NCBI GenBank assembly: GCA_964570665.1 | Contig: CAZMZH010000016.1 | Span: 9,642 to 41,641 of the forward strand | From: an uncultured Nitrospinota bacterium | Lineage (GTDB): Bacteria; Nitrospinota; Nitrospinia; Nitrospinales; JAJDAT01 | Direction: 5' to 3' | Length of the DNA: 32,000 nt | Shown: one piece after another, positions 18,055-21,358 of the stretch | Layout of the letters: the number at the start of each line of letters is the position of its first letter | Position numbering within the stretch: the stretch's first letter is position 1 | Program-made: the position numbers and the translations under genes | Notes under the pieces: generated by a model | Databases searched by the model: none | What the model was told of the DNA's origin: nothing | What the model saw: the letters and a program-made list of their open reading frames with translations, nothing else

Positions 18055-18456
18055 TCACTCAGATGAGCAACATCCAGCTTGACCGAAAACGCCATCATAA
18101 GGAATTTCACCTTGTAAACGCTTAACGTAATGATCCGGGTCCTTGCGGAATACTTCTGGGCAATAGGGGCATCGGCAAAAGAATACTTTCCATCCAGCAA
18201 TCTCCATTCGTACTGTCCACTGAACAGGTTTTTCCGCCAAACATGTTGGACATACTACTAAATCCTTGGTTTCTTGAAGATATCGTGGAGGATCTTCATT
18301 GAAGAGGTCAGTGCAGCCCTGGCAACAAAAAAAATATTCTATACCTTCGTAGGTAGTAGTTGTCCATCGATCTTCACCTATTCCAAGTCTAATTAAAGAA
18401 CAACCACAGGTTGGACAAATGGAGGTCACAATCTTTTTTGCTGAGTCAATTGTCAT
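18055..18456 (-). CDS. Cys-rich protein with two TRASH/YHS-type metal-binding modules and a C-terminal vicinal Cys pair
   Basis: CPTCGCS...YEGIEYFFCCQGCTDLFNEDPPRY and CPTC...WKVFFCRCPYCPEVFRKDPDHY both fit the CxxC...(Y/F)FC..(C)..F...P..Y TRASH/YHS pattern. The protein ends ...QAGCCSSE. Its start overlaps the upstream small gene by 11 nt. Confidence 0.75.
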   Translation of the reverse strand: MTIDSAKKIVTSICPTCGCSLIRLGIGEDRWTTTTYEGIEYFFCCQGCTDLFNEDPPRYLQETKDLVVCPTCLAEKPVQWTVRMEIAGWKVFFCRCPYCPEVFRKDPDHYVKRLQGEIPYDGVFGQAGCCSSE

Positions 18457-18634
18457 TGCATTGGCTCTTTTCAGTTTGATTCATTTCATCACAACAAGAA
18501 GATTCTTTTTTCTTAGGTAGTAAATCCACTACGAAATCAATCAGTGACTGCAATTTGCTCCTTGTACATTCACAGGCTTCTTCTGAAGAAACTGTCTCCT
18601 CTTCTATCTTGTCCCAATCTACATATTTTTTCAT
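18446..18634 (-). CDS. Small acidic Cys-rich protein (62 aa)
   Basis: The ATG overlaps the HgcA-like stop (ATGA) and the 3' end overlaps the next gene, so it appears translationally coupled. It carries the motifs CEC, SSCCDE and a C-terminal QC. I recognise no homolog. Confidence 0.6.
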   Translation of the reverse strand: MKKYVDWDKIEEETVSSEEACECTRSKLQSLIDFVVDLLPKKKESSCCDEMNQTEKSQCNDN

Positions 18635-19500
18635 AGCAACAACGTGCCTCCATAAACTAAAACCAAAAATACTAATATTTTTGCAAAAATTCCACCCGAT
18701 TGTTGGTTTTGCCCTAAATGTGAGTGTCCTTGTGCATCATATCCAATATACCCTCCCAAGGCAATTATCCCTAATGCGGCTTGGGTCTTTAGAACAGGAT
18801 CTGGAAATGATGTTATGGCGAGGGCTAAAATAGGCAGAGATAATGCTAATCCCTTATATAGTAACCTTTCAAATGGAATAAAGTGTTCAATCAATTGCAT
18901 AGAAAAAGCGAAATACCAGACTAAAGCGATCCCTTGTATCCACCAATCTGACGCAAAGAGAACTATTGGGATAATACAAACCAGGGTACAGAAAACAGCA
19001 TGACTGAGGCCCATTTTAAATCGTTCCCAATAGCCATACTCCAGAGCTTGCATATCTTTATTCTTGGTTAGTCCATTATTTAAGAATTCTTTTAAATCAG
19101 TAAAGTAAACCGGACCATATATACCCTCCCAACCATGTTCTTTTAGCTCTTTTCTTTTTACTCCAGCCACGGATAATTGTGGCAGTATTAATTTTTTGTG
19201 ATTCACTAATTTTGCTACATCGTATACTTTCAAGTGTGAAAGAACAGTGTCTGTAGTGAAAACTCCCTCGGCGGCTGCACACCAAACATTTGTTCCTTTG
19301 GTATTAACTACTAAGAGAAAGCAATCTAAAGCCTCCTTTTTTAAATATTCTTTTAAGTGCCTGACTGTGTAATCAAAATTACAGGTAACTAGGATCGGAG
19401 AAGTTTTATCCGGGTTTCCTACAGCAATGGTTTCTGGTTCGCATGGGAATCTGGCAAAACGAAATAGTGTTTGATAAATATCTTTAATCCAGCCAATCAT
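18631..19500 (-). CDS. HgcA-like corrinoid-binding membrane protein (CFeSP-derived domain plus C-terminal multi-TM domain)
   Basis: TIAVGNPDKTSPILVTCNFDYTVRHLKEYL...DCFLLVVNTKGTNVWCAAAEGVFTTDTV parallels the HgcA pattern VGNPDSPVLVT.NY...W.LVLDTKG.NVWCAAGKGTFGT. The C-terminal ~130 aa contain about 4-5 hydrophobic helices, as in HgcA. Confidence 0.75.
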   Translation of the reverse strand: MIGWIKDIYQTLFRFARFPCEPETIAVGNPDKTSPILVTCNFDYTVRHLKEYLKKEALDCFLLVVNTKGTNVWCAAAEGVFTTDTVLSHLKVYDVAKLVNHKKLILPQLSVAGVKRKELKEHGWEGIYGPVYFTDLKEFLNNGLTKNKDMQALEYGYWERFKMGLSHAVFCTLVCIIPIVLFASDWWIQGIALVWYFAFSMQLIEHFIPFERLLYKGLALSLPILALAITSFPDPVLKTQAALGIIALGGYIGYDAQGHSHLGQNQQSGGIFAKILVFLVLVYGGTLLL

Positions 19501-20129
19501 TTTTTAATTTCCAAAAGGATAAACATTCCTAACATAAATGATTTGCAATTAACTTTTTTCAAACCTGCCTCCCTAACTTCCTCCTCAAAATTGGGAATTG
19601 CATTGGTAGTAGTTTGAGTCATTATCCAAGTGAGTAAACGCATTGGCAACCTGAAGGCATAGTAAAAGCATTTAGCTAGAAAGTTTGCTGGAATTATTTC
19701 ATCGCCAATAAAAACTTTTCCTCCATTCTTTAAAATTCTTTTAATCTGCTTCATTACATGAACCCGTTCTGCACGAGTCAGTTCGCTAAATGCCAGCGTA
19801 CTTAAGACGATATCAAACGATTCATCCTCCAAATGCTCATCAAGATTGCTCAAGGAAATATTTAGGTAGCTTGCGGTAGGAGAATTCCTTTTTGCCACTG
19901 CCAGCATACCGCTGTTGGCATCCACTCCGGTAACTTGTGCGCCTCTTTCAATACACATTTGCGCCAAGGTCCCTGTACCACAGCCCAAATCAAGGACTTC
20001 ATCTCCAGACTTGGTTTGAGCGGCAATTTGCTGTTTGATTTTAGTCAAAGATCCTAGAGTTAATAAACCCATACCAATATCGTAACGTTCAGGTCGAGAC
20101 TCAAGAATTTTCATGTAGACAAATGACAT
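19497..20129 (-). CDS. Class I SAM-dependent methyltransferase
   Basis: Motif I is VLDLGCGTGTLA, post-I is VTGVDANSGML, and a later FDIVLSTLAFSEL...LKNGGKVFIGD follows. Its stop overlaps the HgcA-like start (ATGA). Confidence 0.85.
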   Translation of the reverse strand: MSFVYMKILESRPERYDIGMGLLTLGSLTKIKQQIAAQTKSGDEVLDLGCGTGTLAQMCIERGAQVTGVDANSGMLAVAKRNSPTASYLNISLSNLDEHLEDESFDIVLSTLAFSELTRAERVHVMKQIKRILKNGGKVFIGDEIIPANFLAKCFYYAFRLPMRLLTWIMTQTTTNAIPNFEEEVREAGLKKVNCKSFMLGMFILLEIKK

Positions 20130-20138
20130 AATGGCCCC

Positions 20139-20849
20139 TTATCCAGTAATATTTTTTTTATGATCTAAATAAAATTCTTTCATTTCATTGTTGGCCGATA
20201 CCGTTGTTTGAAGACTACTCAAGAAGGAATCTATTTCTTTGCAATTGAGCGTGGCCAGAATATGATCATCACTAACTTCAGTGAAAGTGCGCATTCCAGT
20301 GCAACCAAGGGACATGCCAAAAGGTGATTTATTTAAGGTAGTTGGAATCACAGCACAGGCCGGACGGCCCAAGGCCATAGAATCCATGCTTTCAGACCAT
20401 TTGCAGCAGCCTAAGACTTCGTTATAAATCATCGCCTGAGAAGGTTTCAACCACATTAGAATAAGTTGCGGTTCCACAGGAAATTCCTTTAAAGGTCCAT
20501 ATACCACACCAGCTTTTTTCTCTTTTATTGTAGGGATGTTTGCAGGTTCGTCTTCTGAAAGGTAAGAGCATTCGCACATTTTTTTTACCAAACCACCCAG
20601 TTGTTCTTGGACTTCTTTGGGCATCTCGAACCCTAAAACCATGGAGCCTATTGGACAGTTATAATGTTTATTTGCCGGGGCATAGAATGCTTTTTTCTCT
20701 GCCATGCGCCAGAAAGTACAAAAAGAGGGAACTTGCTCTTCCATGATTTCTACACCTTGTGGTTGATCATCCACAAAGGCCATTGCTACGGGGGGGATAT
20801 CAAGCCCAAAAGCTGAAGAAATTTCCTGGTCAATCTTTGCGTTGTCCAT
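20139..20849 (-). CDS. DUF169-like Cys-rich protein of unknown function
   Basis: PPVAMAF...PSFCTFW...YNCPIG..VLGF and later GRPACAVIP...LGCTGMR resemble the DUF169 family layout as I remember it. A strong RBS (gggagg) lies 5-10 nt upstream. It is the first gene of the operon. Confidence 0.6.
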   Translation of the reverse strand: MDNAKIDQEISSAFGLDIPPVAMAFVDDQPQGVEIMEEQVPSFCTFWRMAEKKAFYAPANKHYNCPIGSMVLGFEMPKEVQEQLGGLVKKMCECSYLSEDEPANIPTIKEKKAGVVYGPLKEFPVEPQLILMWLKPSQAMIYNEVLGCCKWSESMDSMALGRPACAVIPTTLNKSPFGMSLGCTGMRTFTEVSDDHILATLNCKEIDSFLSSLQTTVSANNEMKEFYLDHKKNITG

Positions 20850-20902
20850 GGTCGCCTCCCAATAAATTGATTAGCCTTTTTATAAGATTTTTTTTCATCT
20901 AT

Positions 20903-20933
20903 ACTATACAACCTGTAGTAACTACAGGTTCAA
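20903..20933 (-). promoter_or_regulatory. MerR-type promoter/operator: -35 TTGAAC, 19-bp spacer containing a perfect dyad, -10 TATAGT
   Basis: The minus strand reads TTGAAC-ctgtagttactacaggttg-TATAGT. The dyad ACCTGTAGT-A-ACTACAGGT (20911-20929) has perfect 9-bp arms. It sits between the divergent MerR gene and the DUF169 operon. Confidence 0.8.
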
Positions 20934-20941
20934 GGATTATT

Positions 20942-21358
20942 ATGTCCATTAAAGAAAAAAAATTAAGCATTGGGCTCTTGTCCACTCAAACCAATTGTAA
21001 TATTGAGACAATTAGATATTACGAGAAGATTGGAATTTTCCCAAAACCTCCTAGAACTGAGGGAGGGCATCGTGTTTATAGTGAAAATCACTTAAAGCGG
21101 TTGGTATTTATTCGTCGTGGAAGGGAGCTGGGTTTTTCACTTGAGGATATTCGAGCTCTTTTGAAACTTATTGATGGTGGAGTTTCAACATGTCAGCAAG
21201 TGAAAAATATTACCCTTCATCATCAAGAGAATATTCATCAAAAGATTTTGGACTTAAAAAAGCTTGAAAAAATACTGTCCAAAATATCATCTCAATGTGA
21301 GGGGGGAGTAGTACCAGATTGTCCTATTCTGGATGTACTATTTGACCAAAAAAAGTAA
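20942..21358 (+). CDS. MerR-family metal-responsive transcriptional regulator (138 aa)
   Basis: The HTH is IGLLSTQTNCNIETIRYYEKIGIFPKP...GGHRVY, followed by a dimerisation helix. Cys84, Cys119 and Cys127 are near the Tn501 MerR Cys82/117/126 positions. The start is reassigned to ATG 20942 (RBS aagga), because the track ORF start at 20759 would run through the promoter and the divergent gene. Confidence 0.85.
   Translation: MSIKEKKLSIGLLSTQTNCNIETIRYYEKIGIFPKPPRTEGGHRVYSENHLKRLVFIRRGRELGFSLEDIRALLKLIDGGVSTCQQVKNITLHHQENIHQKILDLKKLEKILSKISSQCEGGVVPDCPILDVLFDQKK

Follow-up and report, generated by a model that had tools for sequence, protein, structure and literature searches.

We analysed a 32-kb stretch of DNA from an uncultured Nitrospinota bacterium (hereafter the window; coordinates count from its first letter), which is contained in marine metagenome assemblies and carries an island made up of a MerR-family regulator and a divergent operon of five genes around an HgcA-like corrinoid membrane protein. 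With a probability of about 0.5, we read this island as a mer-type system of marine Nitrospinaceae, inducible by metals of the Hg(II) class, in which a corrinoid methyl-transfer pair fed by S-adenosylmethionine (SAM) replaces MerA. Such a role is suggested, at the level of sequence, by the conservation of the island as a unit, its near-invariant operator, the mer-type kin of its MerR, and the MerT, heavy-metal-associated (HMA) and Thioredoxin_3 proteins encoded in sibling operons. By analogy, it is also suggested by the parallel layout of the fused-type systems described below, in which an ArsR regulator, a Cys-pair protein and a membrane protein accompany the methyltransferase CpaM.

Organization of the island

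The island comprises six genes and one regulatory region:

20942-21358, plus strand: MerR-family regulator, 138 aa, starting at ATG 20942
20903-20933, minus strand: MerR-type promoter/operator of the operon, read from the sequence
20139-20849, minus strand: DUF169 protein, 236 aa, gene 1 of the operon (PF02596)
19497-20129, minus strand: CpaM class I SAM-dependent methyltransferase, 210 aa (NF043040)
18631-19500, minus strand: Nitrospina-type HgcA-like corrinoid membrane protein, 289 aa (PF03599)
18446-18634, minus strand: acidic, Cys-containing small protein, 62 aa, with a CECTRS motif
18055-18456, minus strand: double YHS/TRASH Cys-rich protein, 133 aa (PF04945)

An earlier note on this DNA had described six genes, their junctions, Cys84, Cys119 and Cys127 of MerR and a MerR-type promoter, all of which are present as claimed. 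A mechanical list of open reading frames (ORFs) begins MerR at GTG 20759; the real start is the ATG given above. Each of the five operon ORFs is intact, and start and stop codons overlap. The CpaM/HgcA-like and HgcA-like/62-aa junctions are 4-nt ATGA overlaps, and, as read directly, the 62-aa and YHS genes overlap by 11 nt (ATGACAATTGA) and DUF169 and CpaM are separated by a 9-nt gap (TAA-GGGGCCATT-ATG). A consensus scan of this last junction found no terminator-like site, and its promoter-like matches were weak and at chance level, one of them (20123-20152) lying on the opposite strand. No ORF with a CX2CX2CX3C ferredoxin motif was present anywhere in the 32-kb window, which bears out the absence of HgcB reported in the earlier note. 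Near the operon, there were zero Rfam matches, i.e., no cobalamin riboswitch or other RNA, and zero tRNAs. MerA is absent from the islands of both the window and its relatives, and the window holds no remnants of MerT, MerP or thioredoxin (Trx) genes.

The HgcA-like protein and its relatives

The 289-aa protein contains the CdhD/PF03599 corrinoid domain, and a search of the PDB matched the corrinoid domain of the corrinoid iron-sulfur protein (CFeSP; E = 1e-12). In its AlphaFold2 (AF2) model (predicted local distance difference test score, pLDDT, 88.5), a cap helix at residues 72-77 carries Cys74, and five transmembrane (TM) helices span residues 157-288. The best profile hidden Markov model (HMM) match in NCBIfam was to HgcAB_like (NF043039; 227.5 bits, cutoff 285), covering profile positions 1-225 of 350, and the score against HgcA (NF040863) was 138.6 bits, short of its cutoff of 275. 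Homologues with 60-92% identity are all 289 aa long; those with a named source come from metagenome-assembled genomes (MAGs) of Nitrospinaceae (81-83% identity), and the top matches, up to 92% identical, are environmental sequences. The link to Nitrospina HgcA-like genes at which the earlier note had guessed is therefore correct, the protein being the Nitrospinaceae 'HgcA-like' protein. Nitrospina scaftigs reported in 2016 by Gionfriddo and colleagues are said to carry the same family. The next tier of homologues, at 35-40% identity, consists of HgcAB-like fusion proteins, and true HgcA matches the corrinoid domain alone; within this domain, identity is 46% to fused HgcAB-like proteins versus 40% to HgcA.

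The cap helix reads NVWC74AAAEG, as against the verified HgcA motif N(V/I)WCA(A/G)GK, and in every Nitrospina-type sequence AE stands where HgcA has GK; these sequences share invariant residues in the cap helix and corrinoid domain. The protein ends after TM5 and contains zero ferredoxin motifs, whereas each fused protein has one or two. In a neighbour-joining (NJ) tree built from 118 corrinoid-domain columns with CFeSP as the outgroup, bootstrap support was 92% for the Nitrospina type, 100% for HgcA and 95% for one fused subgroup. The deep order of this tree was not resolved (Nitrospina type with fused proteins, 26%; with HgcA, 21%), so that placement relies on HMM scores, identity, CpaM synteny and, on our reading of it, a published maximum-likelihood tree. 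Identity, HMM scores and CpaM synteny suggest that the Nitrospina type is tied to the fused HgcAB-like lineage. HgcA-clade membership was not borne out: the nearest relatives are fused HgcAB-like proteins, and the cap helix and HMM score set the protein apart from the verified clade.

Compared with the HgcA/HgcB system (Parks et al., 2013; NF040863/NF040864), the window protein shares the CFeSP-type corrinoid domain, the NVWC cap-helix Cys and the five-helix C-terminal membrane domain. It differs in lacking HgcB or a ferredoxin domain, in its NVWCAAAEG helix, in its HMM score (138.6 versus 275 bits), in falling into a separate NJ clade, and in having an obligate SAM methyltransferase partner and MerR control.

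Coupling to CpaM

The methyltransferase encoded directly upstream of the HgcA-like protein scored 253 bits against NF043040, CpaM (cutoff 180), a model that NCBI types as 'hypoth_equivalog'; our literature search found no experiment on CpaM methyl transfer from SAM to a corrinoid. An alignment of CpaM was searched against 185,579 species genomes, yielding 44 loci, the genes of which were mapped by phmmer. Wherever a locus is not truncated at the end of its contig, CpaM is followed immediately on its 3' side by a gene for an HgcA-like or fused HgcAB-like protein, and in the complete loci none of the HgcA(B)-like proteins has the canonical NVWCAAGKG cap helix. Considering that the CpaM model is passed and that CpaM directly precedes HgcA(B)-like in every complete locus, the charging of the corrinoid by SAM, as put forward in the earlier note, is plausible.

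The Nitrospina-type layout (MerR, DUF169, a variable gap, CpaM, the 289-aa HgcA-like protein, the 62-aa protein and YHS) recurs in about 15 Nitrospinaceae-type loci with differing flanks; the island is thus conserved as a unit, as the earlier note had supposed. Three reduced intermediates, L007, L024 and L025 (Methyloglobulus), lack DUF169 and carry CpaM, HgcA-like and the small protein, YHS being present in some and absent in others. By phmmer mapping, no MerR was detected in L007 or L025, and the sole MerR of L024 is a distant paralogue ~1.8 kb upstream on the opposite strand. Fused-type loci occur in Planctomycetota, Kiritimatiellota, Bacteroidota, Deltaproteobacteria, Nitrospiraceae and others, in the order ArsR, a ~140-aa signal-anchored protein (motif FESCGxxxCA), a ~165-aa membrane protein (motif GCCGSPMLPxYLGL, of which GCCGSPMLP is invariant), CpaM and the fused HgcAB-like protein, often followed by Csp; HMA proteins, P-type ATPases and resistance-nodulation-division (RND) pumps also surround them. 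The window island resembles these systems (NF043039/NF043040; the 'fused HgcAB' of Podar et al., 2015) in its best HMM match, in its higher identity than to HgcA, and in the synteny of CpaM followed by a corrinoid protein with 4-nt overlaps. It differs in that its corrinoid protein has neither a 2x[4Fe-4S] domain nor a Cys-rich tail, in being controlled by MerR rather than ArsR, and in its accessory proteins (DUF169, 62-aa and YHS versus the two unnamed Cys-pair proteins).

The two families that always precede CpaM in fused HgcAB-like operons (L003, 4843-5747; L005, 5481-6415; and ~15 more fused-type loci) had no Pfam or NCBIfam match at thresholds, save for one chance-level match each. Together, the FESCGxxxCA and GCCGSPMLP proteins resemble, at the level of motifs alone, a putative MerP/MerT-like uptake pair; against MerT, the GCCGSPMLP protein gave an hhalign probability of 11%, with only the CC-helix aligned, and an NCBIfam E-value of 0.06. 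One Thermoanaerobaculales contig (L046, 607-5581) carries two CpaM plus HgcAB-like pairs of different subtypes, with gene ends ~1.4 kb and starts ~3 kb apart. Island genes 82-86% identical to those of the window were also found in a Flavobacteriales MAG (L020, a short contig) and at a contig end in a Chloroflexota MAG (L023), for which misbinning is more likely than transfer. A 4.6-Mb 'Nitrospirales' chromosome (L015) and the Methyloglobulus contig (L025) suggest some real horizontal spread.

The MerR regulator and its operator

All three Pfam domains of the family (MerR_1, MerR-DNA-bind and MerR) were matched by the regulator. Its cysteines are at positions 19, 84, 119 and 127, the last two bounding a Cx7C loop, and we take C84, C119 and C127 to be the equivalents of C82, C117 and C126 of Tn501. 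Among NCBIfam models, it scored 118.1 bits against the Hg-MerR model TIGR02051 (cutoff 150.85), 117.6 against CueR and 109 against CadR/PbrR, with a similar score for ZntR, and passed no cutoff. Since the score is below the Hg-MerR cutoff and equal to that for CueR, the metal specificity was inferred solely from relatives. In tblastn searches against plasmids, the best annotated homologues (50-55% identity) were regulators of mer operons: those on plasmids of Brucella sp. and A. tumefaciens F2 are divergent from merT-merP-orf-merA, and a Sphingobium relative adjoins merF-merA-merB. Alignment showed that the three Cys and the Cx7C loop are common to the window MerR and these regulators.

On the minus strand, the operon promoter consists of a -35 element, TTGAAC (20933-20928), a 19-nt spacer and a -10 element, TATAGT (20908-20903). 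It encloses the operator palindrome AACCTGTAGT-A-ACTACAGGTT (20910-20930), a perfect 10-1-10 inverted repeat; by our own estimate, about 1e-4 perfect 10-nt inverted repeats would be expected by chance in 96 nt. Across 10 other Nitrospinaceae loci, the promoter/operator core shows no more than one or two substitutions, although the sequences around it have diverged. In the mer-operon relatives L059 and L060, the merT promoters read TTGACC-CTGTAGTCGCTACAGACGC-TAGGGT, and their CTGTAG/CTACAG half-sites and 19-nt spacer are identical to those of the window. This kinship of MerR and operator to mer operons is the strongest evidence here and suggests an Hg(II)-like inducer. In five other loci (L015, L017, L021, L022 and L029), the divergent MerR is replaced by a different MerR paralogue (~36% identity, Cx9C loop), co-directional upstream of DUF169, and the conserved palindrome is then absent. 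Overall, the island is like a mer operon (MerR-MerT-MerP-MerA) in its divergent three-Cys MerR, its 19-nt spacer, its alphaproteobacterial mer half-sites, and the MerT and MerP-like proteins of sibling operons. It is unlike one in that MerA and MerB are missing, as are MerT and MerP from the window copy, and a methyl-transfer pair stands in place of a reductase.

The regulator's scores, being equal across the CueR, CadR/PbrR and ZntR models, would also fit a system in which the same SAM/CpaM/corrinoid chemistry serves another acceptor, i.e., a different soft metal or metalloid (Pb, Cd, Tl, Sn, As, Sb, Te or Bi) or a non-metal thiol, and the mer-like parts do generic thiophilic-metal handling. 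Cultured organisms with fused HgcAB make no methylmercury (MeHg; Podar et al., 2015; Capo et al., 2022), fused systems are ArsR-controlled and sit beside Csp, HMA proteins, P-type ATPases and RND pumps, the cap helix is unlike that of all verified HgcA, and in the window the island adjoins an OmpR/HisKA system and an efflux set (OEP, membrane fusion protein, MFP, and RND pump). However, among annotated relatives, the regulators closest to the window MerR and their operators come from genuine merTPA operons, a sibling MerT scores above the Pfam threshold, and the RND and two-component neighbourhood is not conserved in other genomes. In addition, the negative MeHg tests on fused-type hosts lacked known induction, and their authors state that activity is not excluded. 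We consider an acceptor other than mercury, the main rival to our reading, rather unlikely.

Sibling operons and reduction of the window copy

In relatives, the gap between DUF169 and CpaM holds some or all of a Trx-like gene, MerT, a MerP-like gene and, in one genome, an insertion sequence (IS) transposase. The Trx-like protein has CPIC, CPSC and ECCE motifs and scores 29 bits against Thioredoxin_3 (gathering threshold 24.8), the MerT homologue scores 36.7 bits in Pfam (gathering threshold 32.9), and the MerP-like protein is an HMA protein with a signal peptide; MerT/MerP genes are present in L014, L022 and L050. The window, having lost Trx, MerT and MerP, is the most reduced form of the island. 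Elsewhere, the Trx-like gene is frameshifted, truncated or a stub (L011, 7702-7972; L015, 5585-7647, with a 543-aa transposase-like ORF behind it; L018, 7713-7922; L021, ~7909-8001). Reductive evolution seems to be acting on the island repeatedly.

Such losses raise the possibility that the window copy is a decaying or non-functional relic in which, with the ferredoxin domain, MerT, MerP and Trx gone, the corrinoid is not cycled and metal is not supplied. The missing transport genes, the damaged Trx genes and IS insertion of relatives, and the fact that no cobalt reductant is encoded would all agree with decay. Set against this are the five intact ORFs with their overlapping starts and stops, the 60-92% identity among HgcA-like proteins of many genomes, which share invariant residues in the cap helix and corrinoid domain, a nearly invariant operator, and a 62-aa gene that is conserved despite its small size. 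Moreover, metatranscriptomic expression of the Nitrospina gene was reported by the Tara Oceans authors, as cited second-hand in PMC12874090. We regard a relic as very unlikely.

DUF169, 62-aa and YHS proteins

The first operon gene product matched PF02596 (E = 3e-24; 86.3 bits, gathering threshold 27). Alignment showed that C44, H62, C65, C165 and C183 are invariant, and a PDB search with its AF2 model (pLDDT 91.7) returned no significant fold match. Homologues with ~50% identity are stand-alone genes elsewhere, once behind an ArsR. Taken with the three loci that lack DUF169 and the MerT, MerP-like, Trx-like or IS genes that relatives insert, these show that the unity of a "five-gene operon built around" the HgcA-like protein had been overstated in the earlier note.

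The 62-aa protein is acidic, with an invariant CECTRS motif and usually a C-terminal CC, and has no Pfam or NCBIfam family. Every Nitrospina-type locus, as well as L007, L024 and L025, has its gene after HgcA-like, and its family comprises just 14 representative clusters among 1.84 billion proteins. Because the family is so narrow and CECTRS is invariant, the protein is probably a dedicated, lineage-specific partner of the ferredoxin-less HgcA-like protein. The YHS protein matched PF04945 (E = 2.6e-13), its first repeat scoring 50.1 bits (gathering threshold 30.3); the second repeat is shown by internal duplication (E = 4e-4), the Cys-rich CxxC...CxxxC pattern of the domain is present, and the C-terminal end is GCCSSE. 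It is probably a cytosolic soft-metal carrier. YHS homologues at ~60% identity occur, without HgcA-like, in clusters with MerT, HMA, MerR and CopZ-type chaperones. We also considered whether the 62-aa or YHS protein is the split-off ferredoxin or Cys-rich tail of a fused HgcAB-like protein and rejected both (hhalign probabilities 0.1% and 0.8%); for the 62-aa protein, the absence of a CECTRS-like motif from fused proteins counts against it as well.

In L062 (3857-8960), a YHS homologue lies in a cluster with ArsR, MerT, HMA and DF-family genes, directly before a flavoprotein of the glutathione reductase (GR)/MerA superfamily, which is followed by a true MerR (155.7 bits, cutoff 150.85) and a second MerT. 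Since the flavoprotein reached no curated cutoff and does not have the Cys pair found at the C-terminus of MerA, it was not called MerA. This cluster may be an uncharacterised mer-like variant.

The separability of DUF169 also allows the island to be seen as two unrelated modules, a metal-stress unit of MerR and DUF169 (with or without Trx, MerT and MerP) beside a CpaM/HgcA-like/62-aa/YHS corrinoid unit that does not serve metal detoxification, their single transcript in the window being an accident of deletion. The stand-alone DUF169 homologues, the three loci with corrinoid genes and no DUF169 (two of them with no MerR detected), and the variable insertions, IS element and decayed Trx included, that split DUF169 from CpaM in relatives are in line with this. 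Yet in ~15 genomes, whose flanking genes differ, the two halves are still neighbours with unchanged order and orientation, and the inserted genes (MerT, MerP-like and Trx) are themselves metal-handling. The downstream half is rich in Cys-pair proteins and its YHS homologues occur in MerT/MerR clusters, and, by the consensus scan, the DUF169-CpaM junction has neither a terminator-like site nor promoter-like matches above chance level. Considering both sides, two independent modules seem improbable.

A proposed pathway

From the observed gene content, synteny, motifs and kinship of regulator and operator, we infer each chemical step of a mercury-class methyl-transfer system. MerR, bound to the 21-bp palindrome, would use Cys84, Cys119 and Cys127 to bind a divalent, thiophilic metal, Hg(II) being the likeliest, and switch the operon on. 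In siblings, the MerP-like protein and MerT would import the metal and the thioredoxin-like protein would handle it, genes that the window has lost. The Cys-rich YHS/TRASH protein and the 62-aa CECTRS protein may bind the metal and pass it on. CpaM, judging from its obligate synteny and curated family, would methylate Co(I) of the HgcA-like corrinoid from SAM, and, by analogy with HgcA, the Cys74-ligated methyl-Co(III) would donate its methyl group to the thiol-bound metal, giving, e.g., CH3Hg+. The cobalt would then have to be re-reduced; candidate reductants are DUF169, in which four Cys and one His are invariant, and unlinked ferredoxins. In the reactivation of MetH and in B12-dependent radical SAM methylases, SAM (re)methylates cobalamin as Co(I) or Co(II). 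The proposed pathway is like these in using SAM as the methyl donor to a corrinoid, and would be unlike them in that a separate class I Rossmann methyltransferase acts on a separate corrinoid protein.

Several points weigh against this proposal. The fused HgcAB-like proteins, to which the HgcA-like protein is most closely related, belong to organisms whose cultures made no MeHg, and a 2026 paper regards methylation by Nitrospina as still unconfirmed, because no isolate carries the gene. By sequence, the HgcA-like protein lies outside the verified HgcA clade, fails the HMM cutoff and has Glu for the Lys of the motif. The MerR does not reach the curated cutoff for Hg-MerR and matches CueR just as well, the MerT and MerP of siblings are missing from the window, no cobalt reductant is encoded within it, and DUF169 is separable from the module. 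Finally, the methylation of Hg is not an obvious detoxification.

A variant of the pathway that would answer to detoxification is exhaustive methylation, induced by Hg(II) through MerR, in which the SAM-charged corrinoid places first one and then another methyl group onto thiol-held Hg and volatile, unreactive dimethylmercury escapes, much like the Hg(0) of MerA systems; we regard this as a long shot. Subsurface ocean water contains methylated mercury, including dimethylmercury, and Nitrospina is abundant there. If the variant were true, the island would be an aerobic, ferredoxin-independent biological source of methylated mercury, including dimethylmercury, in the subsurface ocean.

Flanking genes

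The genes on either side of the island are as follows:

9424-17288, minus strand: OmpR-type response regulator, HisKA kinase, OEP, CusB-like MFP and 1044-aa RND pump, directly downstream of the island
21787-22368, minus strand: DUF2231 membrane protein, flanking MerR
22448-22969: 173-aa protein with a weak GerE/LuxR helix-turn-helix and two predicted N-terminal TM segments, flanking MerR

The two-component and RND efflux genes were considered as part of the island and ruled out, as they are not syntenic with it in other Nitrospinaceae genomes. Between the YHS gene and the response regulator lie ~770 nt (17289-18054) with no convincing ORF, in which a consensus scan found no strong terminator. 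Elsewhere in the window, the minus strand carries a Pup-proteasome set (131-4195) consisting of a proteasome subunit (131-943), a Pup ligase (1107-2588; PF03136, 511 bits) and a proteasomal AAA ATPase with OB domains (2585-4195).

Relation to published loci and implications

Loci of this kind have been described before. Villar et al. (bioRxiv 10.1101/648329, Fig. 1) depict Nitrospina HgcA-like scaftigs with MerR1, a UbiE methyltransferase, DUF169 and YHS, and hypothesise MerR-triggered, Hg-induced expression. The published scaftigs (Villar et al., 2019/2020; Tada et al., 2020, 2021, 2026) hold the same family with the same neighbours and differ from the window in nothing essential, the window being one more copy in reduced form. 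According to Lin et al. (2023; PMC10083202), the hgcB neighbour is missing in all Nitrospina, and the paper, as we read it, discusses Nitrospina-like hgcA among other members of the fused-hgcAB clade. NCBIfam already curates a 'corrinoid protein-associated methyltransferase CpaM' and, for a sister family of the HgcA-like protein, an 'HgcAB-like fusion protein'. The novelty implied in the earlier note thus falls away: the neighbours and MerR control, the absence of hgcB and both protein families were all on record, and the analysis amounts to a correct re-discovery of a locus already described. What is added here is the universal CpaM coupling, the MerT, MerP and Trx of siblings, the mer-type operator, and the separability of DUF169 and YHS.

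In metagenomes of the oxic and mesopelagic ocean, the 'hgcA' signal is dominated by Nitrospina-type hgcA-like genes, which are widely taken as evidence that these nitrite oxidisers may make the methylmercury that builds up in marine fish. Our results indicate that the gene belongs functionally with the CpaM-coupled, fused-HgcAB-like lineage, the cultured hosts of which made no MeHg, and that the HgcA-like protein would depend on a SAM methyltransferase and on a reductant other than HgcB, within a mer-like operon of Hg(II) type. Caution is therefore warranted, and Nitrospina-type sequences should not be counted as hgcA in global Hg models. The added context sharpens, rather than newly opens, the question of mercury methylation by Nitrospina.

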